Shown: positions 5,493-61,720 of the stretch, piece by piece
Layout of the letters: the number at the start of each line of letters is the position of its first letter
Numbering within the stretch: position 1 is the stretch's first letter
Sequence record: OM386667.1
Strand: one strand, 5' to 3'
Length of the DNA: 64,000 bases
Origin: Escherichia phage vB_EcoM_REC
The notes under the pieces: model-generated
What the model was told of the DNA's origin: nothing
Databases searched by the model: none
Seen by the model: the letters and a program-made list of their open reading frames with translations, nothing else
Program-made: the position numbers and the translations under genes

Positions 5493-6041
5493 ATGCTGAA
5501 TGCGGTAGAGTTGGCACCACTGATCCGAATTCTTGTTTATAACCCTTCTCAAGAAGTATTGCCAGATGCAATGCTGATTCAGATCATCCAGACTTGGATT
5601 GATATTATAGGGAATGAAGATAAGGATAAGTGTGCAGTATTGTGGAACAGCTTGATTTCTGTTTTAGAGTATTTATGGAACAACGATGTTCTTAATAACA
5701 ATACTCAAACAGGAGGGGCTATGTCTCGCAGAGAAAAGATGGGTGAAGTCGAAGTTGAAGTTAAATTTAACAACGGTCAAGTAACTTATAAGTCTCCGTG
5801 GGAAGATATTTATCATAACTATTTAAATGGTCTTATGGTTATTCCTGGGTGCACGGCAGGACGAGGAGCAACCAGTAAAGTTCTTATTGGTGGTGTTGAT
5901 GCTCGTGAGATTGATCGAGTAAACAGCGATCCTAACTCTGTAAATGGTCTTGGTAATGTTGCAAGTGTTGATCGTAATACACGCAACGTTAATTATTTGC
6001 GAAATTATGGACCTGTTTCTTTTTATCGTAGGGACAAATAA
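5493..6041 (+). CDS. hypothetical head-tail joining protein
   Basis: 182 aa ORF in a tightly packed structural operon between capsid and sheath genes. Confidence 0.4.
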   Translation: MLNAVELAPLIRILVYNPSQEVLPDAMLIQIIQTWIDIIGNEDKDKCAVLWNSLISVLEYLWNNDVLNNNTQTGGAMSRREKMGEVEVEVKFNNGQVTYKSPWEDIYHNYLNGLMVIPGCTAGRGATSKVLIGGVDAREIDRVNSDPNSVNGLGNVASVDRNTRNVNYLRNYGPVSFYRRDK

Positions 6042-6529
6042 TGGAAAGTGAGATCTTACCAGGTGATGATACGGATTGGGAAACCATTATCAAAAAGATG
6101 ATGGACCTTGAACAAGTTCAAATCGAAGCTGGTTTTTTAACAAACAAAAGGCATCCTGAATCAGATCTCACTATTCCTGCAATAGCAGCTATTCAACAAT
6201 ATGGTAATGAAACAAATAACATACCTGCTCGCCCTTTTATAACAGATGGCGCTGTTATCTCACAGAACAATATCGCTAAAAAGATGAAGCAGGTGTTTGC
6301 AAATTACTTAATGAATAATGTCGGGTTAGCTGTTTTTGAGCCTATAGCGAGAGCCTCTAGAGAAGGAATAGCTCAAGCGATTGCAATGCAACGTTATCGT
6401 CCTTTATCTCCTGTGACAATTAAGATACGACAAGATAAAGGCAACTATTCTAATCATATCTTAATAGATACGGCACACATGATAAATGCAATCGAAACAA
6501 AAATCACAAAAAGCAAGTCTAAAAAATAA
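6041..6529 (+). CDS. hypothetical head-tail connector/neck protein
   Basis: 162 aa ORF, start overlaps the preceding stop (translational coupling). Confidence 0.4.
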   Translation: MESEILPGDDTDWETIIKKMMDLEQVQIEAGFLTNKRHPESDLTIPAIAAIQQYGNETNNIPARPFITDGAVISQNNIAKKMKQVFANYLMNNVGLAVFEPIARASREGIAQAIAMQRYRPLSPVTIKIRQDKGNYSNHILIDTAHMINAIETKITKSKSKK

Positions 6530-6574
6530 CTTGCATAAACTTTGTTTTTGATGTATACTAAAAAGGAGATACAA

Positions 6575-6991
6575 GTGTTACTAGATCAATTTACTCTCCT
6601 TGATCTAACTGAATACCAAGGTCGTAGACGAGTCTACAAAGAGGCGGTTGGTTCAGTTATTGCTAACTTAGAAAGTAGTGTAGAATATGAACCATTTACT
6701 ATTGAAGCGGCAAGCTTACAACCGATATCTGGTAAAACACTGAATGCACTACCTGAAGGTTACAGATCTAAGGCTCAATATAGTTTCTGGACTAAAACAG
6801 AAATGAAGGGGTTACAACAAGGAACAGAACAGTTATCAGATCAGATATTGATAGATGGTAAATGGTATTCTGTTTATTCCCTTAAAAATTGGACCAGAAC
6901 ATCTTTCTTAGTCCATCATCACTGTGTTGCAATATTAGACGATCAAAACAACTCCTGGTCTTATGGAACAGAAGGAGGAAACTTTGGCTAA
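6575..6991 (+). CDS. hypothetical neck/tail completion protein
   Basis: ORF 6542-6991; the GTG at 6575 is preferred because of the AAGGAG RBS at 6563-6568. Confidence 0.35.
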   Translation: MLLDQFTLLDLTEYQGRRRVYKEAVGSVIANLESSVEYEPFTIEAASLQPISGKTLNALPEGYRSKAQYSFWTKTEMKGLQQGTEQLSDQILIDGKWYSVYSLKNWTRTSFLVHHHCVAILDDQNNSWSYGTEGGNFG

Positions 6992-7622
6992 TATTTACCA
7001 ACAAATAGAAGCATACGAAAATGCCATCTACTTAAATATAGGTGGCTTCCTTCAAGAATTAGTGGGGTTGCCAGTCTATGTTATGGATAAGCCATTCATT
7101 AAACCGGATACTCCTTACCTAGCACTACGTATTATCACTTCCAGCGATTCTGGAGGTTGGTCTTACCGAAGCTCTATTCAAAATGATATGTATTCCTACG
7201 AGATGGATAATACCTACGAGATTGAACTTGTAGCCTATCGTGGAAGACCTACCACTTTGATGAGCTATGTTCTGGCTGCTCTCCGTGGTGCAGAGGAATT
7301 AAAATACAAACATCTCTATTCTAAAGGTCTTGGTTTTTTAGGAGCCTCTAATATAGCTCAAGCCAATACGATTGTAGACGGAGATAAGACTGAATTAAGA
7401 GCGCGTATGGTTATGACGTTCAACACTCGTATGAGTATTGAAGATATTGCTACTACACCAATAGAAGCAATCAACATGCACATCCGTTCATTCAGAGATA
7501 GTTACAATGATCCTATCCCTTTAGATTTAATTCTAAACAGGGTTTATGCAATTACTTTGGTTCCAGGCGAATACTCGTCAGTTAATCAAAATGGATCATT
7601 ATTTAACAACCCTACCGAATAA
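6963..7622 (+). CDS. hypothetical tail terminator/completion protein
   Basis: 219 aa ORF immediately upstream of the sheath gene. Confidence 0.4.
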   Translation: MEQKEETLANIYQQIEAYENAIYLNIGGFLQELVGLPVYVMDKPFIKPDTPYLALRIITSSDSGGWSYRSSIQNDMYSYEMDNTYEIELVAYRGRPTTLMSYVLAALRGAEELKYKHLYSKGLGFLGASNIAQANTIVDGDKTELRARMVMTFNTRMSIEDIATTPIEAINMHIRSFRDSYNDPIPLDLILNRVYAITLVPGEYSSVNQNGSLFNNPTE

Positions 7623-33850: not shown

Positions 33851-36523
33851 ATGTTTCCAATTCCAATATTTACTATTATGACCAGCACTGGTGTCGTTCC
33901 TCTGCCAGCAGGTATTGTTAAAAAAGTAATCACTCTAGATTACCCAGATAATGCTGGCAATTCTAATAGCAGTTTAGCAATTTTGCTTAATGATGGTAGA
34001 TTGTTTACTCAAGGCGCAAACCTTTTTGGTGAGATTGCAGATGGAACTCGTAGTGCACGATTCAATAATTTCCACTTAGCTTCTACTGTAGTAGCGGATG
34101 TGTTTACCGCAGATCGTTGTTTTGTTATTAAAACTAACAGTGGGGGATGGCAATATTCAGGATTGACAGCAGGGTTGGTAGGATCTATAGCAGCAGGTGG
34201 TACGGATGCATGTGTAACTACTTGGACCAGCTTTCCATCTGTAATAACAGGGACTATCTCTTTAGCCAATCTTAAAGAGGTTAAGGGAGGATATAACAAC
34301 ACTCTCTGGTTGATGAATAGTGGTGTTCTTTATGGATCAGGTCAAAACACAGTAGGCAGTTTAGGTGCAAGTACTACTAACGAAGTTTCTACTCCTCGTC
34401 AGATAACAAGTGCAGCAGTTGCTTTTGATGCAGGTTACAACCAATGCTCTTATGTCAACAATGTGGGAACCTTGCGTGTTTGTGGGGCTAGTAAAGGTTT
34501 AGCAGGTAATAATAACACAACAACAGCTTTTGTCAATGCCAAGATATCCGCTACTGAAACAGTGTATGTCAAAGATTACATCAATACAGTTTCCCAGACA
34601 ATAGTTGTAGGAGATACCTCCGGTGGCACGGGTACAGTAAACTACTTATATGTTAGATCTAATACAGAAACAACCTACACTAAACTGGACACCTTTGCAG
34701 CAGGTTTCTCAACATGGAAATTTCCACCAAGCCGCCACTCTTTTTTCGTTGGGATCAATAATTCCTTGTGGGCTATTGGTAAGAACTACACTGCAAACTT
34801 AGGTTTGGGGTATGATTCTGCGAGCGGAGATCCACTCCAAGTGGGAAAACCAGTTAAACCTGAAGGAGTGGGTTCCTGGGATATAAACAAGCTCACAAGC
34901 GTTCATACACTGAATATGGATGTTACTAACCAATTAGGTTATCAAGGAACCTTTTTCGTTTATAATGGAGATATGTATTATTCAGGTATTTGGAAAGATG
35001 GGAAAGCCTCGTATCTGTTCAATAGTGGTCTAAACTATAATAAATTCACACCAATAGCAAGCTCCGTGATTACAGGGGATGTTCTGGCAACTGGCTTAAC
35101 TACAGATTCTTTAGGAATTTGTATTGTAGGTGGAACTAAACAGTTGACACATTCTGTTAGCCCAGAAGGAGGTAAACTTTTCAATATTAAATACACTTCT
35201 TCTGCCCCTGCAAACATGACAATATCATCTACTGGTTTAATGACTTTCCATGCAGAAGGTGGTTTTGATGCAGGTATGACAGCCTTAAACGCTGAAGGAA
35301 CAATTTTATCAGATACCTCTGGAGGATATGCTTCAACATTGAGTGTTTACACCCCTAGCTTATCTGCGATGGATGTAGGAACAACACAAACAATGGTAGC
35401 AGAAATAACACCAACAGGAGCAGCAAGCTTACCTGATATGGTTGTTGAGTATACAACTACAGATCCTAATGTTGCTACAGTAGATCCTACAACTGGTGTA
35501 ATAACTGGTGTTGGTGATGGTGGTTGTAGGATTGGTTGCACAGCTACGTATCAAGGTGTTGTTACCGCTTCTGATAGTTCTTATTTAACGGTGAATGCTG
35601 TTGCGGGAAAGGAGTTAGCTCCATCTCCGAGTAGTAGTTTAACGGTTCTAAACGGATATTTCAACCACTCGGCAGATGGGGCAATTACGTTCCCAACTTT
35701 ATCGGGTACTGTTACACCAGCTAACTTTGTAGTTAAGGTGGATGACGTTGTAGTTCCTTCAAGTAAAGTAATATTTAGAAACAAAGCTTTCTCTACAGTG
35801 GATAGTTATCCAGCAGGAGAATATAGACTGGCTATTGAATTTGCAAGTGCTTCAGTAGTTAATAGTGTGGAAGTGTCTATGGAAGCAAACCCAAGTCTTT
35901 TAGAACTTTGGGGCGGTAATAGAATCAGTTATTCTACAAGCCCAGCCTCACAATTCTTAAAAGGTTGTGCTAACTTAAGACGAATAACTTCTGATTGTTT
36001 TAGTAACACATCTTACACCGGAACATCTATAAGCGGTATCTTCTCTGGCTGCACAAGTTTGACAGCTATCCCTGAAGGATTATTCAGTGATGCTTTATTT
36101 CCTTCAATGACAACAATGTCAAGCACGTTTGAAGGTTGTACATCTTTAACATCTATTCCTTCAGATTTATTTAAGAATCTGTCAAAAGTTACAAGATATT
36201 CTTACACCTTTAAAGATTGCACCTCTCTTGCAGAAGTTCCAGCAGGAATGTTTGATAATATTCCAACGAAAGTGACCTCTTTAACAGCTACATTCCAAGG
36301 TTGTTTAGGACTTACAGATTTTAATAAGATCTTTAATGACAACCCAGGGTTAACTGTTTGTGGTAAACGTGGAGCATTATCTTCTTTCTTTAGTGGATGC
36401 ACAAATCTTACAGGAACAGGAACAACATTAACAAATACATTAGGCGGAGTAGCTAATAGTTACCTATTCAGGTATTGCACAAAACTTTCTGATTATAACA
36501 ACATTCCTTCCGGTTATAAATAA
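33851..36523 (+). CDS. tail fiber/adhesin with Ig-like (Big_2-type) domain and C-terminal Cys-containing leucine-rich-like repeats
   Basis: 890 aa; Ig-like segment TPTGAASLPDMVVEYTTTDPNVATVDPTTGVITGVGDGG; repeats F.GCTSLT.IP..LF recur four to five times near the C-terminus. Confidence 0.55.
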   Translation: MFPIPIFTIMTSTGVVPLPAGIVKKVITLDYPDNAGNSNSSLAILLNDGRLFTQGANLFGEIADGTRSARFNNFHLASTVVADVFTADRCFVIKTNSGGWQYSGLTAGLVGSIAAGGTDACVTTWTSFPSVITGTISLANLKEVKGGYNNTLWLMNSGVLYGSGQNTVGSLGASTTNEVSTPRQITSAAVAFDAGYNQCSYVNNVGTLRVCGASKGLAGNNNTTTAFVNAKISATETVYVKDYINTVSQTIVVGDTSGGTGTVNYLYVRSNTETTYTKLDTFAAGFSTWKFPPSRHSFFVGINNSLWAIGKNYTANLGLGYDSASGDPLQVGKPVKPEGVGSWDINKLTSVHTLNMDVTNQLGYQGTFFVYNGDMYYSGIWKDGKASYLFNSGLNYNKFTPIASSVITGDVLATGLTTDSLGICIVGGTKQLTHSVSPEGGKLFNIKYTSSAPANMTISSTGLMTFHAEGGFDAGMTALNAEGTILSDTSGGYASTLSVYTPSLSAMDVGTTQTMVAEITPTGAASLPDMVVEYTTTDPNVATVDPTTGVITGVGDGGCRIGCTATYQGVVTASDSSYLTVNAVAGKELAPSPSSSLTVLNGYFNHSADGAITFPTLSGTVTPANFVVKVDDVVVPSSKVIFRNKAFSTVDSYPAGEYRLAIEFASASVVNSVEVSMEANPSLLELWGGNRISYSTSPASQFLKGCANLRRITSDCFSNTSYTGTSISGIFSGCTSLTAIPEGLFSDALFPSMTTMSSTFEGCTSLTSIPSDLFKNLSKVTRYSYTFKDCTSLAEVPAGMFDNIPTKVTSLTATFQGCLGLTDFNKIFNDNPGLTVCGKRGALSSFFSGCTNLTGTGTTLTNTLGGVANSYLFRYCTKLSDYNNIPSGYK

Positions 36524-36525
36524 GA

Positions 36526-36553
36526 AAAGGAGCCATTTGGCTCCTTTCTTTTA
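36526..36553. terminator. bidirectional rho-independent terminator between convergent late and early modules
   Basis: 9-bp stem AAAGGAGCC/GGCTCCTTT, loop ATTT, flanked by A-run and T-run. Confidence 0.8.
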
Positions 36554-36579
36554 TAAAAACTCTTTATAAATCAATAAGA

Positions 36580-37467
36580 TCAGAACGGAATATCATCATC
36601 GAAGTCCATCGGAGGTTCTTCTTGATTACTTGGAGTTGGTTCTGGTTGTGGTTCAGGCTTTTTAACTTCTTTCTTCTCTTCTTTCTTAGGTTGTTCTGCG
36701 GAACCACGAATGGCAGCAGCAACTTTATCAGACAGAGCCAGAACTTTACGAGCAGAATCAATCAGATCTTCTACAGATACAGTCTTAATGGTATGGTCTT
36801 TACAAGCATTAAGGATAGCGTGACCAACAGATGCCCCAAGATCATAATCATTAATATCAACGCCACGAGATTCAGCAATTTCAGATTTCAGCGTGACAGT
36901 TGCAGATTGAACAACCCCAGCGATATCGAAAGCATCGCCTTTAACACCATTACGAATCAGTTCCAGTGCACCATTTACTGCGTGACCAGTTTCCAGACCT
37001 ACAGTATCACGTTTTTTATAGGACTGTTTAGGAGCAGCATCGTTGGAACCTTTATTGCCAGAAGATTTGTTAGACTTCTGAACACCATCGGTAGACAATA
37101 CTGTAATACGAGATTTTTTAGTATTGTAGTAAGTTTTACCGCCTTTATTATCAACGCGATCAATATCAATACTTACTTCTACACCTTTTTCAATAGTGAT
37201 CCAGTTATCACCTTCTTTGACTTGCAGGTTTTCATAACCTTCTTTCAGTTCAATGTCACCAAGAGAAATCCAAACACCTTTCTCCTCTGGTTTAGCACCT
37301 TTCTCTTTCAGAACAAGAGAAGCTCGGTGAGTTGAAACAATCGTTTTTCCTTCCCAATGAAAAGTTTTAGGTTCAGCGAATTTATCCAGTTTAACGTAGT
37401 CTACGATACCAGTTGCATAAGTTACGGTTTTGCCTTTACGATCAGTTTCAGTATTAATTACGGACAT
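36580..37467 (-). CDS. ssb: single-stranded DNA-binding protein
   Basis: 295 aa; Gly/Ser/Pro-rich linker; C-terminal acidic tail ...PPMDFDDDIPF, identical in its last residues to the canonical bacterial SSB tip. Confidence 0.8.
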   Translation of the reverse strand: MSVINTETDRKGKTVTYATGIVDYVKLDKFAEPKTFHWEGKTIVSTHRASLVLKEKGAKPEEKGVWISLGDIELKEGYENLQVKEGDNWITIEKGVEVSIDIDRVDNKGGKTYYNTKKSRITVLSTDGVQKSNKSSGNKGSNDAAPKQSYKKRDTVGLETGHAVNGALELIRNGVKGDAFDIAGVVQSATVTLKSEIAESRGVDINDYDLGASVGHAILNACKDHTIKTVSVEDLIDSARKVLALSDKVAAAIRGSAEQPKKEEKKEVKKPEPQPEPTPSNQEEPPMDFDDDIPF

Positions 37468-37483
37468 TATTATCTCCTCTATA

Positions 37484-37876
37484 TTACATTAATTTTGCAC
37501 AGAAAGAGCGGAGTCTTTCCATATCATCTTGCTCTAACAGGTATTTACCTTTACCTATTCCAACTCCAATTTCACCGTTAGGGAAATGAACTATTTGCAC
37601 TGGAAAACCTCCGAGTTTAATTGTGGCAGCTTTGCCTTCTTCGTCTATAACGTTTCGGATTGTATCTTGCAGTGAAATGAATTCTTTGTTTGTAACAGTG
37701 GCTTCAATTATTTCAGAGGTTTCAACACGAGCCGTTAGCTTCTTGTCTCCACCTTGAATAATCAAAATTTGAAAATAAAAAGAGTTGTCAAGACCTACAA
37801 CATTTTTCTCAACTAGTGTCAAACTGGTATAATTTCCATAAACAGTTTCAACAGCTATTTTAGAACGTTCAGTCAT
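37484..37876 (-). CDS. hypothetical protein
   Basis: 130 aa, RBS present, replication module. Confidence 0.45.
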   Translation of the reverse strand: MTERSKIAVETVYGNYTSLTLVEKNVVGLDNSFYFQILIIQGGDKKLTARVETSEIIEATVTNKEFISLQDTIRNVIDEEGKAATIKLGGFPVQIVHFPNGEIGVGIGKGKYLLEQDDMERLRSFCAKLM

Positions 37877-37921
37877 TGAATGCTATCCTATCATAAAATG
37901 TTTAATATTGTCAAGCTTTAA

Positions 37922-38515
37922 TTACCAAGGAATATCTTCTTCTTCCAATTTGGTATCTACTTGAGGTGGACGTGGAACCTTAACCTCTTTAACAAAACGA
38001 AGATATGGAAAACGTGTAGCGATTTTAATAACATGTTTGGCATCTTCTCTAACATCTTTGTGCAAGAAGCAGATCCCTGTTTCCAAAGTTGTTTCAAAAT
38101 CTTTAGAGTAATAACAATCCTTTCCATCAAATGCAGCCTGGCAGATGGACAGATCAAACTCATTCAGAAAGGTTGTCATTACATTTGGGTCCATAATCAT
38201 AAGGTTGCAAAGCTGACCGTCACGTTCAAATTCAAAAACGTGTTTAAGACCAGTAACACCCTCGTAGTTATCAGAAGCCTCTTTGTTTCCTAGCTTACGA
38301 ACATTAGTTCCCATTAAAGCAGATGCAATTAGTTCTTGTATTTGCTCTTCTGATCGATGTGCAGGAAGTGACGTATAGAAATCCAGATCACGTCCAGCAA
38401 TATCAAGAATACGCCAATCACGAACAGCACCGCCAGCCAAGACAGAATTAGGATCAGCGATCTTTAAGACAGTAAGAATTTCTTTGGCAATGTTGATTTG
38501 TTTTGATTTAGTCAT
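37922..38515 (-). CDS. nucleotidyltransferase-fold protein (GGAVRD motif) with SSB-like acidic C-terminus
   Basis: 197 aa; LAGGAVRDW...DLD resembles the Pol-beta/CCA-adding nucleotidyltransferase head motif; ends ...LEEEDIPW. Confidence 0.4.
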   Translation of the reverse strand: MTKSKQINIAKEILTVLKIADPNSVLAGGAVRDWRILDIAGRDLDFYTSLPAHRSEEQIQELIASALMGTNVRKLGNKEASDNYEGVTGLKHVFEFERDGQLCNLMIMDPNVMTTFLNEFDLSICQAAFDGKDCYYSKDFETTLETGICFLHKDVREDAKHVIKIATRFPYLRFVKEVKVPRPPQVDTKLEEEDIPW

Positions 38516-38726
38516 TGATACGCTCCACAGTTACTTTAACAATATCGTCCATATTAATCTCATCTCCCAAGACTTCAATAACACCTTCCTCATAAAGTCG
38601 AGCACATTCTTCCCATACTTCTGCTTCCGTCATTCCACCTTCAATCTTATTTGCAAGACCTTTAATAACATCTTCATTTTGTTCATCAATAAGAATTGAA
38701 ACATTAAAGCTCACTAGTTTACGCAT
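38508..38726 (-). CDS. hypothetical protein
   Basis: 72 aa acidic protein with AAGGAG RBS. Confidence 0.4.
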   Translation of the reverse strand: MRKLVSFNVSILIDEQNEDVIKGLANKIEGGMTEAEVWEECARLYEEGVIEVLGDEINMDDIVKVTVERIND

Positions 38727-38736
38727 TGTTTTCTCC

Positions 38737-38904
38737 TTATACCTCTAAACGGAAAGTTTCTTTAGATACAAAATCGTATCCACCTTTTTCAAGCCAGTCA
38801 TTGTAAACCTCATCAGCTTGAGACTCTATCATAAAATACCGAGTGGTAATTTCGTCTCCGACAATACGCACAATTTTATAGCAAATCATGATACCATTTC
38901 CCAT
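38737..38904 (-). CDS. small hypothetical protein (about 55 aa, below ORF-track cutoff)
   Basis: ATG at 38904 preceded by GGAGGAAG RBS; TAA at 38737-38739; translation MGNGIMICYKIVRIVGDEITTRYF... Confidence 0.3.
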   Translation of the reverse strand: MGNGIMICYKIVRIVGDEITTRYFMIESQADEVYNDWLEKGGYDFVSKETFRLEV

Positions 38905-39095
38905 TAATCTTCCTCCAGATCAATTTCATTATAGCAATGTATGCAGTAGCCATCGTTGTGCATATGTTGTTCATAAGACATATCTTTACCACAAGACCAA
39001 CAACGAATATCGCCATCGTCCCATTCACGTTCTTCTTCGCCTTCAAATGCATCTGGTAGGTAAGGCATACCAAGACAATCTAAATCGTAATGCAT
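38904..39095 (-). CDS. small Cys-rich (zinc-ribbon-like) protein
   Basis: ORF 38904-39179 trimmed to the ATG at 39095, which has an AGGAGG RBS; motifs CWSCG...CIHC. Confidence 0.35.
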   Translation of the reverse strand: MHYDLDCLGMPYLPDAFEGEEEREWDDGDIRCWSCGKDMSYEQHMHNDGYCIHCYNEIDLEED

Positions 39096-39108
39096 ATCTC
39101 CTCCTATA

Positions 39109-39126
39109 AAGGGGCAGAAGCCCCTT
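39109..39126 (-). terminator. stem-loop downstream of DNA polymerase gene
   Basis: Stem AAGGGGC/GCCCCTT with 4-nt loop; weak U-tract. Confidence 0.35.
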
Positions 39127-39144
39127 ATAAAACAATATGTTAGA

Positions 39145-42100
39145 TCAATGACAGGATGCCCAGGAATTACCCACGTCATATCCGGCAGTAAGCTGAACGT
39201 TAAGATTGTAAAATTCTCCAGCCTTAGTAACAGCTAAAGCAGCAAGTTCACCTGCCCGACTATAAGCTGTAAACCATCCACCTTTGGGAGATTCATGAAT
39301 GTTAGCCCAAATTTGCCCTGTCTCTTTTTCCTTATTATGCTTCCATTCTTCAACTTTAGCAAGGCATTCTTTATCAATTTTCTTTTGTTCTTCAGGATCG
39401 TCTACTTTCTTCCAACCTAATGATTCAGGTGAAAACCATTTGAATTCTACAAGGTTACGAGAAACTTCAAGCTGGGCTTCATCGTGGTATGCAATCATTT
39501 GTTGCACGAAGTCTTTATTCTTCCAGTCATCTTTAAAGAAGTCAACACTTAGTCCTTCTTCTTCGATCATATCGTCATAAATAACCATTGCACGTTTAGC
39601 ACAGATAACCCCACCACTTTGGAACAGAGAGTTAAGAATCGCGTGAGCAGAACGAGTAGGAACCTTACGACCGTCAATACCCAAAACATACTGTTTACCA
39701 GTCTTAACCCAGAAATCGTTTAAACGTTCTTTAAGACGCGCCAGTGGGAATGCAGCTTCCCAGAAAGCATCGAACACCAGTTGCCCTGTAAACTTATCGC
39801 TACCAATTGTTTTAGCAACCTTGTCGGCTTGTGCACCATAGGTAATACCATACTTAACAGATTTAGCAGGACTACGTTCAAATTTACGTCCAATAGTTTC
39901 AGTGATACGTTTTGCCATCATGGTATGAACATCGTTAGGCTTCTCTAACAAGAGAGCGTTACAGTATTCATGAGGCTCCGGTTCGTAGCGCCAACAGTTT
40001 CCTGTGATGGTAATGCAGTCTTTCTGACGCATGACCCACGTACCAAGTTCTGTTTGTGGACACCAAACATCCTCTACACCCCACTCTTCAATAGTCAAAC
40101 TTTGAACAGGAATGTGAGAGCGGTTAGCCAATGTTACCACTTTTACTTTCTGCTCTTTTGTATTGAAAGCTACAGAGATATTGCCTCCATGCACCAGGTA
40201 CGAGGCAGTTAAAGCTGCTTCAAAAAGTTCACCTGGGTTCTGCGCCCAACGCCAAACAGGTTTTTGTTTATGTTCATGCCAGTAACCATCTGCAATCAAG
40301 AAACCTTCCAAGAAAGCTACACGCTCGGCATGAGACATATTAACTACACGCTCTACCCACGGAACATCCCATTTACCTTGTTGAACAGAAGTTAAACTAT
40401 TTACCTGATCTTGTTCCATGTTAAATGGAGCATTACAAATAATATTATCTCCTGTGCAAAGCTCGGCAGTTGTTCTGACTTTAGGCACATAAGTATTCCC
40501 TTTACTACGGGTATTAACATACCAACGGTGATCTGCTGTTGCACGGTAAGTGTGTGATTTCCCTTTAATCTCAAACGTCTTACTATTTTTATAGAAGACC
40601 TTACCTTTTACTTTAGTCCATTCTTTCAGACCTGTTTCAGCATTGTACCCTAAAATCTCATCCCCTTCCTTCAGGTCGTGATATCCTACCCAACCTTTAC
40701 GAGTCAAAGCTTGAGCATCCATCGGCACACAGTAATGTGATTCAATTTTTGCTTCCAAAGAGTCGAAGTCGTAGCCGATCTGGAAGTATTTAGGAACCTC
40801 TACACCAAACAAGTTACGCATCTCCCATCCAAACAAAGATGTGACACGAGGAATATTAGCTACAGATCTATGTTTCATACGAGAGGTTGCAGCATCACAT
40901 GTAGCGGCTGGTGTAGGAATACGCCCATCCGCCCTTACTGCGGCTAAGAAACCTTTATCGTATTCTTGATCTTCTTCATCTTCTTCCCAATCAGCACCGC
41001 CACCTAAAATAGAGTTCCTACGATGCTTATACGTTAAGTATTCTACAATCTGTGTAGCATAAGGAAATTTCTCACCCAAAGCTTGCAGGTTAGGACAAAT
41101 TTCTTTTTCCTGACCTTTGGTAAAACATGGGTTAGTCAATACTTTAAGACCGCGACCTTTACCTTTTGCTATACGCTCTTGAATCTTCCTTTCCAAAGTT
41201 TCCGGTGTGCACTCCAGATGATCACAACGATCCTGACAAAAATTAGAAGATAGAGTTTGCTCAACGTAAGCTCTAATACCTTTCTGAAGTTCTTCCTCGC
41301 TCTTTTTAATTTTGGTGCCAGATTTAAGCGTCAAGTCTTTATCTTTATATTCAGACGGTACCCAACCTAATCCTACGAGCCAGTTTTTAATATGGGTTGT
41401 ATCGTTCAATGTTGCAGGGATGTTAGGATCACATAGAGGCTCATCTGCTGCAACTGGCAGTTTCCACTCTTTCCCCCACATAACTAACCACCAATCGCCA
41501 TCCCTCTCTTCCAAATGACCATCATGTTTCTTAGCAAAATTGATCATATGGTTAGTTGGCTCTAAGTTCTTTTTAATTTGCAACTTAGGTGGAATAAAAG
41601 CCTTAAGATAACCTTTTGTTGCTGGTTTAGGTGGCAAAATAGGCTCAACGAGTAAACGAAGACGCTCCATTTCTGCATCCAAAAAAGCAAGGTTCTCTTC
41701 TGCTTGCTTCATGTTAAAAGCAAACCCACGGTGTTCCTGGCGTGTAATAATGTCTGCTACACGTTGTTCAAGTTCAAATGGACCTTCCCATTTATCATAA
41801 TCGCCCCATTCTTCCATAAGGTAATTATATACGCTCGTATTGGCTTTGTTGTCATAGATACAGTAATAAAGCATATCCGCAGCAAAAGTCTTAAATCGAT
41901 CTTCTTCTGGAATCTCTTTACGGAAATCTATTTTTACATCACCACCTGCTTTTCGAGAAAGTGCTGCCAAGCTATGTCCTGATTTGCCCTCAATCTTTCG
42001 ATCTGGGTTTAACACTTTACTCAAAATCAAGGAGTCAATAAGTTTTACCTTATTTTTGCCCCACGTATTATATTTAACACTGTAATCTAATCCATAAAAC

Positions 42101-42477
42101 AGTTTTGTAGCCAACCAGTCGTAGTTGATACCGTTGTGAGCCACAGCCATTTCAACCAGATATTCAGGCTTGTCTTTAAAATAACCTTCATGATTAATAA
42201 AATCTGGGAAATCTTTTAGTTGAAAATGTGTGTAATCTTGCGCCACATACTCTTTAAGAACATATGTGTATTTACCATCTGACTCTTCATAAGGACGCCC
42301 ATCAAAGATGTATTTAGGGCCATCGTGGAAAGCTACTATTTCTCCTGTTTCATGGTTCTCTAAGACAATACAGTGCATTTGAAATGTGTCTTTGAGACGA
42401 TAAGGACTAGCTAAATAATCAATAGTGTCATTATTCAACAATCCGTTTGCTTCAATATCCCATGTAAACTTACTCAC
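39145..42477 (-). CDS. family-A DNA polymerase with 3'-5' exonuclease domain, interrupted by an intein-like element
   Basis: 1110 aa; exonuclease motif DIEANGL; motif A-like YDFDSLEAKIESHY; motif B-like KSVKYGITYGAQ; motif C-like HDEAQLEV; about 245 aa insertion after motif A. Confidence 0.85.
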   Translation of the reverse strand: MSKFTWDIEANGLLNNDTIDYLASPYRLKDTFQMHCIVLENHETGEIVAFHDGPKYIFDGRPYEESDGKYTYVLKEYVAQDYTHFQLKDFPDFINHEGYFKDKPEYLVEMAVAHNGINYDWLATKLFYGLDYSVKYNTWGKNKVKLIDSLILSKVLNPDRKIEGKSGHSLAALSRKAGGDVKIDFRKEIPEEDRFKTFAADMLYYCIYDNKANTSVYNYLMEEWGDYDKWEGPFELEQRVADIITRQEHRGFAFNMKQAEENLAFLDAEMERLRLLVEPILPPKPATKGYLKAFIPPKLQIKKNLEPTNHMINFAKKHDGHLEERDGDWWLVMWGKEWKLPVAADEPLCDPNIPATLNDTTHIKNWLVGLGWVPSEYKDKDLTLKSGTKIKKSEEELQKGIRAYVEQTLSSNFCQDRCDHLECTPETLERKIQERIAKGKGRGLKVLTNPCFTKGQEKEICPNLQALGEKFPYATQIVEYLTYKHRRNSILGGGADWEEDEEDQEYDKGFLAAVRADGRIPTPAATCDAATSRMKHRSVANIPRVTSLFGWEMRNLFGVEVPKYFQIGYDFDSLEAKIESHYCVPMDAQALTRKGWVGYHDLKEGDEILGYNAETGLKEWTKVKGKVFYKNSKTFEIKGKSHTYRATADHRWYVNTRSKGNTYVPKVRTTAELCTGDNIICNAPFNMEQDQVNSLTSVQQGKWDVPWVERVVNMSHAERVAFLEGFLIADGYWHEHKQKPVWRWAQNPGELFEAALTASYLVHGGNISVAFNTKEQKVKVVTLANRSHIPVQSLTIEEWGVEDVWCPQTELGTWVMRQKDCITITGNCWRYEPEPHEYCNALLLEKPNDVHTMMAKRITETIGRKFERSPAKSVKYGITYGAQADKVAKTIGSDKFTGQLVFDAFWEAAFPLARLKERLNDFWVKTGKQYVLGIDGRKVPTRSAHAILNSLFQSGGVICAKRAMVIYDDMIEEEGLSVDFFKDDWKNKDFVQQMIAYHDEAQLEVSRNLVEFKWFSPESLGWKKVDDPEEQKKIDKECLAKVEEWKHNKEKETGQIWANIHESPKGGWFTAYSRAGELAALAVTKAGEFYNLNVQLTAGYDVGNSWASCH
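39997..40731 (-). other. intein-like (Hint domain) insertion within DNA polymerase
   Basis: Starts with Cys after ESHY; TxxDH block (TADHRW); LAGLIDADG-like LEGFLIADGYW; ends ...ITITGN followed by Cys (CWRY). Confidence 0.55.
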
Positions 42478-43271
42478 TATTCCTCCTTTCTAATGTTCTC
42501 CAGAACCCACTGAAGTTCTTTTAAACTTAAACTTCTTACTCCCGCAGTTTTACTAGCTTCAGCTTTAAGTAACGGGTAAGCCTCAATGATACGCGTTTTA
42601 AGATCAGAAGTCAAGGCTTTTAAAAAATAGGTAGATGCTTCAGATAAAGAATCTTCTTCTGATAACACTCTACCTGCACTTGCTCCCGCTCTCCTAACAG
42701 CTATATCGTAGTCTTTACTGTTACCTAATACGAATAGTCGATTCTCTCCTAAAACAACGGGAGAACGCTTCTCGTTGCGTTTAATCCATACCTGGAATAC
42801 ACAAGGAACATCCCAAGGTTCTCCATGAAGAATAAAAGATCCTTTTGGACATTCTTCTTCGTAAAGAAGATGCATATGGGGATTTAGTTTGTGTGCAAAA
42901 AAGATTTTTTGAAATGTGCGAGGCAAGATAAAACAAATACCACCTTCGTTATCCAGCATTTCAGCACAATGGTTAAAGAATTTAATGGCAAGACTAGCAT
43001 TTTTTCCAAATGGAGGATTACCGACAAAAGCAGTTACACTACCAACAGACTCAACAGATTGAGCTAAAAAATCTGCCTCAATACAATCTTCAAACTTAGG
43101 GTCAATATCAAAAGAAGTTATGTTTTTAAAACAAGAAGAGAAAGCTCCTTCTCCCGCAGATGGTTCTACGTAGTTAGCTTCCTCTCCAAAAATTTCTTTG
43201 ATCTTATCACATAAGAACCCCGCATAAGCGGGGTTAGTGTAATATTGATCAAGTGTGTTCAACTTGCTCAA
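42477..43271 (-). CDS. putative N6-adenine DNA methyltransferase
   Basis: 264 aa; motifs DQYYTNP, EPSAGEGAF (AdoMet-binding) and GNPPFG (catalytic NPPF). Confidence 0.55.
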   Translation of the reverse strand: MSKLNTLDQYYTNPAYAGFLCDKIKEIFGEEANYVEPSAGEGAFSSCFKNITSFDIDPKFEDCIEADFLAQSVESVGSVTAFVGNPPFGKNASLAIKFFNHCAEMLDNEGGICFILPRTFQKIFFAHKLNPHMHLLYEEECPKGSFILHGEPWDVPCVFQVWIKRNEKRSPVVLGENRLFVLGNSKDYDIAVRRAGASAGRVLSEEDSLSEASTYFLKALTSDLKTRIIEAYPLLKAEASKTAGVRSLSLKELQWVLENIRKEE

Positions 43272-43791: not shown

Positions 43792-43807
43792 AAGGGCCGA
43801 AGCCCTT
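43792..43807 (-). terminator. rho-independent terminator after primase-helicase gene
   Basis: Stem AAGGGC/GCCCTT with loop; minus-strand reading followed by TTATTAAAAA. Confidence 0.5.
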
Positions 43808-45584
43808 AATAGTTGCTATCCGTAGGCAAATTAGCAGGATTGTTGAAATACTGCTCTTTGTCATGCAGAGTTGCAGTTCTAATGTCATAGTAAAACTGCC
43901 CTGCCGGACCAGTTTCCGAGAACTCACGGTTTTTTAGGATAAAGCAATGAGTCGTATTGCGTTCTACAGGGTCTTCAGCGGCTTTATCTCGTTCCAAAGC
44001 CAAGGTAATACCAGCACCTTTAGCCAAGAAACTACTACCCATTGCATCGTCCTCTGTTAAGTGTTCATTGCCACCATTAGCCGATTTCTTAACGTGTGAG
44101 ATGACGATAATAGTTATAGCATACTCTTTCATAATGCGCTTCAACCATGTTGCTAACTCTTCTTGGGCTTGAACATCCATACCAGAAAGCAAATCAGAAT
44201 AAGGGTCGATAACAAGAATTGTTACTCCAAAATAGATGATCATCTCCAAAACTTTTTCTTTGATAGACTCCACATCTGCTCCACGATCATCACATACATA
44301 AAAACGTGGTGATCCATCTTCTCTTTCGTAAAAATCTAGGATTTTTTCTTTATTCTCTTCCAAGATTTGAAATTTCTCTTCCGGTGTTTTCCTGTGTAGA
44401 GGAATATGCAGGAACGAGGACAACAGGTTACGAGAATATTTCTTATAAGTTGCTTCCAAGGACAGGATACCTAGGGTATGTTCTGGGTGCGCAACAATAA
44501 TATGTTTGGTGATCTCGTTCACCATCAAAGTTTTACCGATACTGGTCTTTGCCAGGATGACTGTAATCTCTTCCTCTACTAAACCACCACCCAGCATGTT
44601 TGCAGCTACACGCATAAAAGGAGGCAAGGTAATCATCTTGGATTCCAAGCATTCTAATGCAGCTTCATACAAGACATTAGAAGCATAAACACCTGCTGGG
44701 GTGTATAGACGAGCACTCCAAAAAGCTTTTACGAAATCTTTTGCACGACCTTCTTCCAGATACTGATTGGCATCCTTAAGATCCATCTGCATACGGTAGA
44801 CTTTGTTACGAGGCAGCACCTTAACAATATTTTCAAATGCCTCATTACCTGCTTTATCATTATCCATGCAAACAATAATCTTCTTAAATTTTTCAAAGAA
44901 AGGATATTGTGCCTGAACTTGTTTATACATACTGGTTTCACCAGTTGTGCCACTAACTACTGCTGGAAGTTCATACTTGTTGTCCAAGTTTTCAGATAGC
45001 ATTTGATAAGCTGCCAGAGCATCGTGTTCACCACCTGTAATTACCACAGTATGAGAACGGTCTGCAAAACGAATTTGTCCAAAAAGATCTACATCTTTAC
45101 CTACTTGACCAATAGGTTTACTGAAATCTTTAGGATGAATACGACGCTTAAAACCAACCAATTCTTTACCGATAGTAGTCGGATATAAACAACTTTCTAC
45201 TACCATCTGATCCCCTTCCTGACGGTATTCATAACGAACACCATAGAAAGATGAAACTTTTTCTTTAATGCCTCGATAACCACGTGGGTTGGTTGATGTT
45301 TCTTGAACAATTTTACGATGAATCTGTTTATTAAATTCCGAACCCACAATCTCCTCCTCTTCTTCTAAAACTTCACCATTTTCTCGTAACCATTCTACGC
45401 TAGGAATAGTGTATTCACACGCAAAGCACTTAGCACCTTTATGCTCTCCATTAGAATCTAATCCATAAACCATCAGGTTATTACGAGAGCGATCCTTGCC
45501 ATTTTTCATGCAGCGCGGACAACCTGTATGCCCTTCCTTGCTAAGATCAACATCAAATCCATATTTAGTTATAATGTGCGACAC
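43806..45584 (-). CDS. DNA primase-helicase (T7 gp4-like bifunctional)
   Basis: 592 aa; N-terminal zinc ribbon CPRC...CFAC; TOPRIM-like VVITGGEHDALAAY; helicase Walker A AKTSIGKT and Walker B VIDPYSDLL. Confidence 0.8.
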   Translation of the reverse strand: MSHIITKYGFDVDLSKEGHTGCPRCMKNGKDRSRNNLMVYGLDSNGEHKGAKCFACEYTIPSVEWLRENGEVLEEEEEIVGSEFNKQIHRKIVQETSTNPRGYRGIKEKVSSFYGVRYEYRQEGDQMVVESCLYPTTIGKELVGFKRRIHPKDFSKPIGQVGKDVDLFGQIRFADRSHTVVITGGEHDALAAYQMLSENLDNKYELPAVVSGTTGETSMYKQVQAQYPFFEKFKKIIVCMDNDKAGNEAFENIVKVLPRNKVYRMQMDLKDANQYLEEGRAKDFVKAFWSARLYTPAGVYASNVLYEAALECLESKMITLPPFMRVAANMLGGGLVEEEITVILAKTSIGKTLMVNEITKHIIVAHPEHTLGILSLEATYKKYSRNLLSSFLHIPLHRKTPEEKFQILEENKEKILDFYEREDGSPRFYVCDDRGADVESIKEKVLEMIIYFGVTILVIDPYSDLLSGMDVQAQEELATWLKRIMKEYAITIIVISHVKKSANGGNEHLTEDDAMGSSFLAKGAGITLALERDKAAEDPVERNTTHCFILKNREFSETGPAGQFYYDIRTATLHDKEQYFNNPANLPTDSNY

Positions 45585-45596
45585 TTTGTTCTCCTG

Positions 45597-45875
45597 TTAA
45601 AATGGTTCGTTAGTCTCCATCATATATTCTGCTTCTAGTTCTTCCATATGCTTTCTAAATTGGAAAGCAATTTCTGCTACAGTTACATTTAAATCTTTTT
45701 CAAAAACTTCTGTAGAGCCTTCATAAAAACGAATACCGTCAATTAAAAGCCCTCCGTGGTAATCCCAATCACTTTCACGAGAAAGCGGGTTAGGCTCTTC
45801 ATAATAGTAATCCACCTCCACAACTAAGGCTTTCCCGTTACGAGTGATGTATTCAAAATCAAAAGTGTTAATCAT
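45597..45875 (-). CDS. hypothetical protein
   Basis: 92 aa, start overlaps upstream stop. Confidence 0.4.
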   Translation of the reverse strand: MINTFDFEYITRNGKALVVEVDYYYEEPNPLSRESDWDYHGGLLIDGIRFYEGSTEVFEKDLNVTVAEIAFQFRKHMEELEAEYMMETNEPF

Positions 45876-61044: not shown

Positions 61045-61236
61045 TTAAAATGGAAGTCTTTGAAGTTCATCTCCTCCGATATCAAGTAATTTAGCAACAT
61101 CTCGATCAGAAAGCAACTCTTTTCTTTGTAAAATATCCACAAGGGTTGCAAGAATGTCCTTAACGTCCCGATCACTGTTCTTCAAAAGTTCTCCTGCCGT
61201 CCCTACTCTATCTCCTACAGCAAAATATGTAACCAT
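61045..61236 (-). CDS. small hypothetical protein
   Basis: ORF 61045-61269 trimmed to the ATG at 61236 (AGGAGG RBS). Confidence 0.3.
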   Translation of the reverse strand: MVTYFAVGDRVGTAGELLKNSDRDVKDILATLVDILQRKELLSDRDVAKLLDIGGDELQRLPF

Positions 61237-61249
61237 GAAACCTCCTAAG

Positions 61250-61720
61250 TTAATCTGATTGCCAACCACTTGCCGTTTTGGTCCATAATCTTTGATTATC
61301 TGACCCTCTGAAAGGTTTTGTAGTTGGATTGTTTATTTCATACTTTCCGTCTACAATAATGTCAACAAGATTTTTAATATACAAAGGCACTTCCTCAAAA
61401 GTATATCCTGTATACACCATTATATCTTTGCTTGACCCATAAACGTCTCTAACCTTTTCTATAAGGTTTTTAACATTGTAAATATTCTGCGGATCTAATG
61501 GCTCTCCTCCTAAAATTGTTAAACCTTTTACAAACGGTCTTGACAAATCTTTTAAAACTTGCTCTACATTTTCGTGAGTAAACGGTTTCCCATAAGAATA
61601 AGACCAGGCTTTTTGGTTAAAACAGCCACGACAACCGTGGCTACAACCACTAACCCAGAGGGAGCACCTAACTCCCTCACCATTAATAAGATCTACAGGT
61701 TCATATCCTGCAAAATTCAA
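61250..61720 (-). CDS. nrdG: anaerobic ribonucleotide reductase activating protein (radical SAM)
   Basis: 156 aa; cluster CSHGCRGC; immediately downstream of nrdD with overlapping stop/start. Confidence 0.8.
   Translation of the reverse strand: MNFAGYEPVDLINGEGVRCSLWVSGCSHGCRGCFNQKAWSYSYGKPFTHENVEQVLKDLSRPFVKGLTILGGEPLDPQNIYNVKNLIEKVRDVYGSSKDIMVYTGYTFEEVPLYIKNLVDIIVDGKYEINNPTTKPFRGSDNQRLWTKTASGWQSD

Follow-up and report, generated by a model that had tools for sequence, protein, structure and literature searches.

We analysed a window of 64,000 nucleotides from Escherichia phage vB_EcoM_REC (OM386667.1) that contains two notable genes at the 3′ end of a long leftward replication operon. One encodes a protein that resembles SSB, the protein that binds single-stranded DNA, and ends in the C-terminal tip of bacterial SSB. 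The other encodes a small nucleotidyltransferase (NTase) that ends in a similar tail, an acidic run followed by Ile-Pro-Trp. The NTase tail appears to be a selected and recurrent feature associated with replication modules. We put at about even odds (a probability of roughly 0.5) the reading that it is a docking motif of the SSB C-terminal (SSB-Ct) type, anchoring the enzyme at a site where the SSB tip is read as well. The original prediction, made from the sequence alone, suggested that both proteins dock onto the same partner pocket and that the phage SSB may compete for the host SSB interactome; as a whole, this interpretation is partly supported by the results below.

Conservation and recurrence of the NTase tail

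Among the open reading frames (ORFs) of at least 50 amino acids in the window, only the SSB-like protein and the NTase have both an acidic run and IP[FW] at the C-terminus. The same two proteins stood alone in this respect in the complete 149-kb genome of phage ESCO5, in which ORFs of at least 40 amino acids were considered. An NTase with a GGAVRD motif and an EEEDIPW end had been predicted two genes away from the SSB; both features were confirmed, with LAGGAVRDW at residues 26-34 and a single gene, encoding a 130-residue protein, separating the two ORFs. Ten NTase orthologues (59-97% identity) ended in [DE]DDIPW in all but one case, the exception (P0123, from a contig that stops short of the SSB-like tail) ending in DDSFPW, and the linker preceding the tail varied among them in both sequence and length. 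The terminal residue was Trp in all 10 orthologues and Phe in some other lineages of the family (P0280 and P0229). The NTase of Citrobacter phage Tr1, at 35% identity, ended in KDIPW.

Ends of this kind were also over-represented in the wider family. Six of 150 NTase family representatives ended in [ILV]P[FWY] compared to 0.15 expected from composition, an approximately 40-fold enrichment (P = 1e-8; P = 5e-7 with two Stephanstirmvirinae-like members counted as one). The six ends were DDIPW (twice), SNDIPW, DDGIPF, KPIPF and ESIPY. Exact-sequence look-ups provided the gene contexts of two of these proteins: a T7-type primase-helicase gene directly follows that of the DDGIPF member, and the SNDIPW member adjoins a ligase-like gene within a block of nucleotide-metabolism genes, one of whose products ends in ...DDFDDF. 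No relatives of P0280 or P0238, both tailed NTases, turned up in scans of IMG/VR. Since the end is conserved while its linker varies, since 6 of 150 family representatives carry such an end, and since tailed members neighbor replication modules, we argue that the tail has been selected and that it recurs in separate lineages of the family. The restriction of such tails to two proteins, their conservation among orthologues and the enrichment in the family further argue that their pairing in one operon is not due to chance.

Like the SSB-Ct, the NTase tail is flexible (predicted local distance difference test, pLDDT, <50) and acidic, and has Ile-Pro followed by a terminal aromatic residue with a free carboxylate. 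It departs from the SSB-Ct in the identity of that residue, which is Trp instead of Phe. An unrelated phage contig (L010; SRR30872278_811, 413-1486 and 5655-7608) carries an NTase relative ending in ...SSNDIPW after a gene with a KxDG ligase-like motif. A 357-residue protein encoded nearby ends in ...EDDSDALDDFDDF, an acidic Phe tail in the style of T7 gp2.5.

A predicted stand-alone NTase domain with similarity to Gad2

Profile searches upheld the assignment of the tailed protein to the NTases. It matched phrog_10174 among the PHROG profiles (4e-63), and in the PDB its family profile hit CCA-adding enzymes and poly(A) polymerases at motif A (E 0.002). The Pfam profile PolyA_pol (PF01743) scored 15.4 bits, under its gathering threshold of 23, and was reached at E<=0.01 by 20 of 136 relatives. 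A word-indexed search yielded 12 relatives and an exhaustive profile search (E<=0.001) 1,039 representatives, with family members mostly 175-230 amino acids in length. Residues G28, G29, D43 and D45 were invariant across an alignment of 136 sequences. An AlphaFold2 model (pLDDT 88.8; predicted template modelling score 0.82) adopted a class-II NTase fold that ends at about residue 175, with the remainder disordered. The enzymes that it matched are 370-520 amino acids long, and the neck, body and tail domains of tRNA nucleotidyltransferases are absent from the 197-residue phage protein. Both the motif A signature GGxVRD...DxD and a polymerase-beta-type fold are present, and the NTase is probably an active enzyme.

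The family profile also aligned with residues 16-140 of Gad2 (hhalign probability 94.6%, E 7e-8), with Gad2 represented by the sequences published alongside its first description (bioRxiv 10.1101/2023.05.01.538930). Gad2 counters Gabija, is predicted to contain an NTase domain and presumably acts enzymatically (bioRxiv 10.1101/2023.05.01.538930; PMC12904381). Precomputed Pfam tables contained weak PF26128 (Gad2) flags in NTase relatives, and our local Pfam scan reported PF26128 for none of them. By these profile comparisons, the NTase appears to be distantly related to Gad2. One 400-residue relative (P0200) was considered as the Gad2 of SPbeta and rejected.

An SSB-like protein with the tip of E. 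coli SSB

The protein encoded at 36580-37467 had been described as a phage SSB ending in the bacterial SSB tip. The tip is indeed there: the protein ends in ...SNQEEPPMDFDDDIPF, and in alignments to 1eqq/7f2n all 12 of its last 12 residues are those of E. coli SSB. Over the 39 nucleotides encoding the tip, identity to the 3′ end of the E. coli ssb gene was 90-92%, with no match further upstream. Recent capture of the tip from host ssb is therefore not supported, the match being about what identical residues permit.

The remainder of the protein is not that of a canonical SSB. It failed to match the Pfam SSB profile PF00436 even at E<=1, SSB matches in the PDB (phmmer) spanned only its last 26-27 residues, and SSB-annotated PHROG families aligned only with about residues 250-295. 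Its own PHROG family was phrog_4477 (4e-97), which is labelled as of unknown function. An AlphaFold2 model built from a 75-sequence alignment (mean pLDDT 81) has a beta-rich domain (residues 1-125), a disordered stretch (133-149), a four-helix region (156-253) and a disordered C-terminus (254-295) that ends in D-D-D-I-P-F-COOH. Foldseek found no significant match to this model in the PDB, the sensible matches being oligonucleotide-binding (OB) domains. Of the original description, the tip stands and the canonical SSB does not. The model points to a divergent OB fold joined to a four-helix bundle, and we refer to the protein as SSB-like because it lacks a PF00436 match, because SSB profiles are confined to its C-terminus and because its predicted fold is divergent. 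We infer that it binds single-stranded DNA. The annotation of ESCO5 lists no second SSB. Among 137 homologues found, tips were counted in the 120 listed; all 120 carried the tip, and its aromatic residue was always Phe and never Trp.

Phage SSBs carrying a copy of the host's tip are familiar, and the SSB-like protein has a described relative. In BLASTP comparisons with Bas52_0087 of Vequintavirus RudolfGeigy, the OB domain was 35% identical (E 1e-12) and the helical domain plus tail 33% identical (E 8e-16). Bas52_0087 is the genetically identified trigger of the DRT10 defence system; the authors call it SSB-like and propose that its C-tip, FDDDIPF, may interface with SbcB, and Bas52_0087 acts together with SbcB, an SSB-Ct client, in the genetics of DRT10 triggering (bioRxiv 10.64898/2026.04.29.721553). 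The Bas52_0087 escape mutation D252V from that study maps to the region of the four-helix bundle, D154 of the window protein lying just before the bundle. Given this homology and the published tip, the SSB-like half of the finding adds a further member to a kind already described.

A T7-like replisome with several aromatic C-termini

The best PDB match of the primase-helicase in the operon was T7 gp4 (E 7e-25), and the DNA polymerase belongs to family A. In every lineage checked, comprising the window and orthologues in L005, L006, L007, L008 and L015, the primase-helicase had an aromatic C-terminal residue (PTDSNY, AEGAY, PDGSY, PEGTY and PEQTF). The primase-helicase of Vequintavirus Bas52 ends in FEDDETPF, an acidic end with PF that recalls the Phe-terminated acidic tail of T7 gp4. 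In a 92-residue protein from the same operon, the C-terminal Phe is invariant among 12 homologues and closes a conserved ...ME[TS]NE[PS]F end; this protein may be the third in the module to bear a tail. From its gene through that of the SSB-like protein, 4 of 11 products have an aromatic C-terminus. In the T7 replisome, gp2.5 and gp4 each bind basic patches on the polymerase gp5 through an acidic tail and compete for them (bioRxiv 10.64898/2026.05.20.726333; PMC12339929), and the C-terminal Phe of gp2.5 is essential (Ghosh et al. 2009, as cited in PMC12339929).

The polymerase itself is 1110 amino acids long compared to 865 in an 84-93% identical orthologue (L015), a difference made up by one 244-residue insertion (aa 584-827; nt 39997-40728). 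The insertion starts with Cys, and a Cys follows after ...TGN. It appears intein-like; a Pfam scan of the polymerase reported no intein domain at E<=0.001.

A docking model for the NTase tail

In the model that we favor, two products of one operon share a docking motif at a flexible C-terminus, consisting of an acidic run and then Ile-Pro, an aromatic residue and the free carboxylate. Through this tail the NTase, a fold of about 175 residues, would be tethered to a site that reads the SSB tip. Candidate sites are a basic patch or hydrophobic pocket on the phage polymerase or primase-helicase, or on host SSB-interacting proteins. The known clients of the SSB-Ct include ExoI/SbcB, RecQ, PriA, chi, RecO and DnaG, among others. 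Tethering would concentrate the NTase at single-stranded DNA and 3′ ends, at sites of replication or repair. A docking site common to both tails is plausible because the replisome is T7-like and the T7 tails compete for the polymerase. We infer the binding of the tails, the shared receptor and the substrate of the NTase. The T7 precedent would likewise favor competition of the SSB-like protein for the host SSB interactome, and the masked-tip variants described below weaken both ideas. A bolder form of the model, which we regard as a long shot, is that an NTase bearing an imitation of the SSB tip enters SSB-tip pockets on nucleases, helicases or defence proteins of the host (such as ExoI/SbcB, RecQ or SSB-sensing systems) or docks on the phage polymerase and nucleotidylates 3′ DNA ends or the bound protein. 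If true, phage single-stranded DNA would be protected or immunity disarmed, small Gad2-related phage NTases would have acquired the imitation repeatedly, and there would be a hint as to how Gad2 works.

Several observations weigh against the docking model. The NTase ends in Trp and none of the listed SSB-like homologues does, and the receptors of the two tails may therefore differ. In T7 gp2.5, another aromatic C-terminal residue can reportedly substitute for Phe. Moreover, 17 of the 120 listed SSB-like homologues run about 15 residues past IPF (for example, APIGLQYGRNFLHCF), and one of these masked-tip proteins is 99% identical to that of the window, which is the unmasked form. The extension carries a conserved [AS]P[ILV]GL[QP]Y... 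peptide; examples are found on contigs L012 (3001-4399), L005 (6064-7501) and L006 (6026-6973) and in proteins P0001, P0013, P0029, P0048, P0052, P0094, P0102 and others. If a free C-terminal carboxylate is needed here, as it is by clients of E. coli SSB, phages with masked tips either do without an exposed tip or process the protein. A free tip thus seems not to be indispensable, unless the extension is removed. Finally, the NTase of Justusliebigvirus ends in ...NNEEFKI and has no tail, with gene order unchanged and the motif of the SSB-like protein kept; the tail is therefore not required for the core function of the NTase. Most members of the NTase family likewise lack such a tail.

As to the source of the masking, two cases, Citrobacter phage Tr1 and the Phapecoctavirus contig with the 99%-identical protein, have a 164-residue HNH-like ORF inserted directly behind the gene, with its start overlapped by the extension; in Justusliebigvirus PHB05 the extension is present without an HNH-like ORF. 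The masking sequence resembles a cassette of a mobile endonuclease, or the footprint of one. The HNH gene annotated in some close relatives (EF1-1) was rejected as the source, as it adjoins the polymerase gene and not the SSB-like gene.

Alternative explanations

The NTase could instead be a Gad2-like anti-defence enzyme, its tail serving as a decoy or as an address toward host defence or repair proteins that read or sense SSB. We consider this unlikely. It would account for the profile match to the Gad2 NTase domain and the faint PF26128 flags in relatives, and it would fit with a Gad2 that inhibits Gabija, presumably enzymatically (bioRxiv 10.1101/2023.05.01.538930; PMC12904381), and with the many defence systems that sense phage SSBs (PMC12904381; bioRxiv 10.64898/2026.04.29.721553). 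However, the NTase is missing the C-terminal part of Gad2 (about 260 residues), the local Pfam scan gave no Gad2 match, and in all relatives the gene lies within the polymerase-to-SSB operon and outside any anti-defence island.

In T7 gp2.5, T4 gp32 and E. coli SSB, the tail folds back on the protein's own OB fold. By analogy, the NTase tail could be an intramolecular, autoinhibitory element that folds onto the protein's own nucleic-acid-binding surface and has no receptor in common with the SSB-like protein. The tail is acidic, flexible and borne on a variable linker, as such an element would be, and the gp2.5 tail controls the DNA binding of its own protein (PMC10359462). Self-shielding, however, needs negative charge only; it leaves unexplained both the conservation of the terminal Ile-Pro-Trp and the recurrence of IP[FWY] ends in other NTase lineages, and we judge it improbable.

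Harder still to credit is that the protein is a minimal tRNA 3′-end (CCA) repair or RNA-tailing enzyme for phage tRNAs and that the likeness of its tail is meaningless. CCA-adding enzymes and poly(A) polymerases are its top structural and sequence matches, its GenBank label is putative tRNA nucleotidyltransferase / poly(A) polymerase, and ESCO5 carries 10 tRNAs, RNA-ligase-like proteins and a phosphoesterase. Yet only the head domain is present (197 versus about 400 amino acids), without the domains that hold the tRNA, the PolyA_pol score is sub-threshold, and the gene sits in a DNA-replication operon, with the tRNA cluster some 40 kb away; the conservation and recurrence of the tail also speak against chance. 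Least probable of all is that the tail binds the phage SSB-like protein itself, at its OB groove or helical domain, making the NTase a client and not a competitor: the strict synteny of the NTase, 130-residue and SSB-like genes and the contacts of SSB acidic tails with their own OB folds would suit such an arrangement, but the Justusliebigvirus NTase is syntenic and tailless.

Genomic setting

Over region 36000-42500, the window matches Escherichia phage ESCO5 (Phapecoctavirus, Stephanstirmvirinae) at 99.3% identity, with many further relatives at 97-98% identity, and by sequence we assign the window to Phapecoctavirus. The GC skew switches sign at about 36 kb. In order of transcription, the operon encodes the 92-residue protein, the primase-helicase, a 143-residue protein, a methyltransferase and the polymerase, followed by three small proteins, the NTase, the 130-residue protein and the SSB-like protein (Table 1). 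The order of the last three is constant in Phapecoctavirus, Justusliebigvirus, Citrobacter phage Tr1 and metagenomic relatives. No relative of the 130-residue protein was detected in the PDB or Pfam, and it showed no similarity to the product of the gene upstream of Bas52_0087. Either neighbor, the NTase or the SSB-like protein, could be its partner.

Two further proteins were observed. A 91-residue protein (38904-39179, minus strand) may contain a zinc ribbon, to judge by its two CxxC pairs (CWSCG...CIHC); its gene is kept between the polymerase and NTase genes in relatives, including L008. The counterpart of ESCO5 gp185 (61045-61269, minus strand), a small protein encoded beside anaerobic ribonucleotide reductase genes, ends in ...DELQRLPF, a further Leu-Pro-Phe terminus, without an acidic run.

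Table 1. Coordinates of the operon genes, predicted domains and terminator in the window.
Feature	Position	Strand	Remarks
Bidirectional hairpin terminator	36525..36548	.	Between the convergent tail-protein gene and SSB-like gene; end of the leftward operon
SSB-like gene, 295 aa, phrog_4477 / Bas52_0087 family	36580..37467	(-)	ORF and phrog_4477 match; annotated as SSB in ESCO5
SSB-Ct tip EPPMDFDDDIPF, residues 284-295	36583..36618	(-)	Identical to C-terminal 12 residues of E. coli SSB
Predicted disordered K/E/P-rich linker, residues 254-283	36619..36708	(-)	pLDDT below 50-70, no secondary structure
Predicted four-helix bundle, residues 156-253	36709..37002	(-)	Best-conserved part of the family
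Predicted beta-rich OB-like domain, residues 1-125	37093..37467	(-)	
130-aa protein gene, phrog_16560	37484..37876	(-)	Between NTase and SSB-like genes
NTase gene, 197 aa	37922..38515	(-)	ORF; LAGGAVRDW = residues 26-34; end ...KLEEEDIPW
Predicted disordered NTase linker and tail, residues 176-197	37925..37990	(-)	EEEDIPW = nt 37925-37945; pLDDT 66 falling to 49
Predicted stand-alone NTase head domain, class-II (CCA/poly(A) polymerase type), residues 1-175	37991..38515	(-)	
NTase motif A GGAVRDWRILDIAGRDLDFY, residues 28-47	38375..38434	(-)	Invariant G28, G29, D43, D45
Family-A DNA polymerase gene, same operon	39145..42477	(-)	Candidate tail receptor by analogy to T7 gp5
T7 gp4-type primase-helicase gene	43806..45584	(-)	Product ends ...PTDSNY
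92-aa protein gene	45597..45875	(-)	Directly upstream of primase-helicase gene

Significance and comparison with known systems

The C-terminal tip of SSB is a hub that recruits more than 12 bacterial replication and repair proteins, and several anti-phage systems sense phage SSBs. If the docking model is correct, the phage would be using this hub in a new way, addressing catalysis to it through an enzyme with an SSB-tip-like tail. It would also provide a testable handle on more than 1,000 representatives of uncharacterised small phage NTases and on the mechanism of Gad2. The SSB-like part alone is ordinary. We found no report of an SSB-tip-like tail on a phage enzyme in the literature searched; the tailed, Gad2-related mini-NTase is undescribed in the searchable literature, whereas its kind of docking motif, the SSB-tip or T7-tail type, is known.

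Compared to E. coli SSB, the SSB-like protein has the same last 12 residues, likewise carried on a disordered acidic linker, but its body is not PF00436 and includes an extra four-helix bundle. The NTase tail resembles the E. coli SSB-Ct in its acidic run, Ile-Pro and C-terminal aromatic residue with a free carboxylate, and differs in having Trp instead of Phe and in belonging to an enzyme rather than a binder of single-stranded DNA. Bas52_0087 occupies the same locus position, downstream of a T7-like primase-helicase and polymerase, and shares the FDDDIPF end; it is longer (408 amino acids), with a second OB domain inserted, and unlike in the window no tailed NTase gene is annotated in the Bas52 region examined. 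In T7, as here, several proteins of one T7-type module bear acidic or aromatic C-terminal tails. There, however, the tails belong to the SSB and the helicase, with no tailed NTase among the four replisome proteins, and the window tails use the bacterial IPF-type ending and not that of T7.

Gad2 has an N-terminal NTase domain that is related to the window protein at the profile level, and shares with it the motifs AGGA, DxDxYF and FDF[TS][VI]C..AFD. It is a 400-residue protein with a large extra C-terminal region (residues 141-400) that has no counterpart in the window NTase, its gene belongs to an anti-defence locus in SPbeta-like phages, and its end, ...ISAIKSK, is no SSB-like tail. The nearest known systems for the fold of the window NTase are the class-II tRNA nucleotidyltransferases and poly(A) polymerase (PF01743) and the stand-alone head domain 2la3. 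From the class-II enzymes the phage protein differs in three ways: it dispenses with the neck, body and tail domains, it scores under the Pfam gathering threshold, and it adds a tail of putative docking type.

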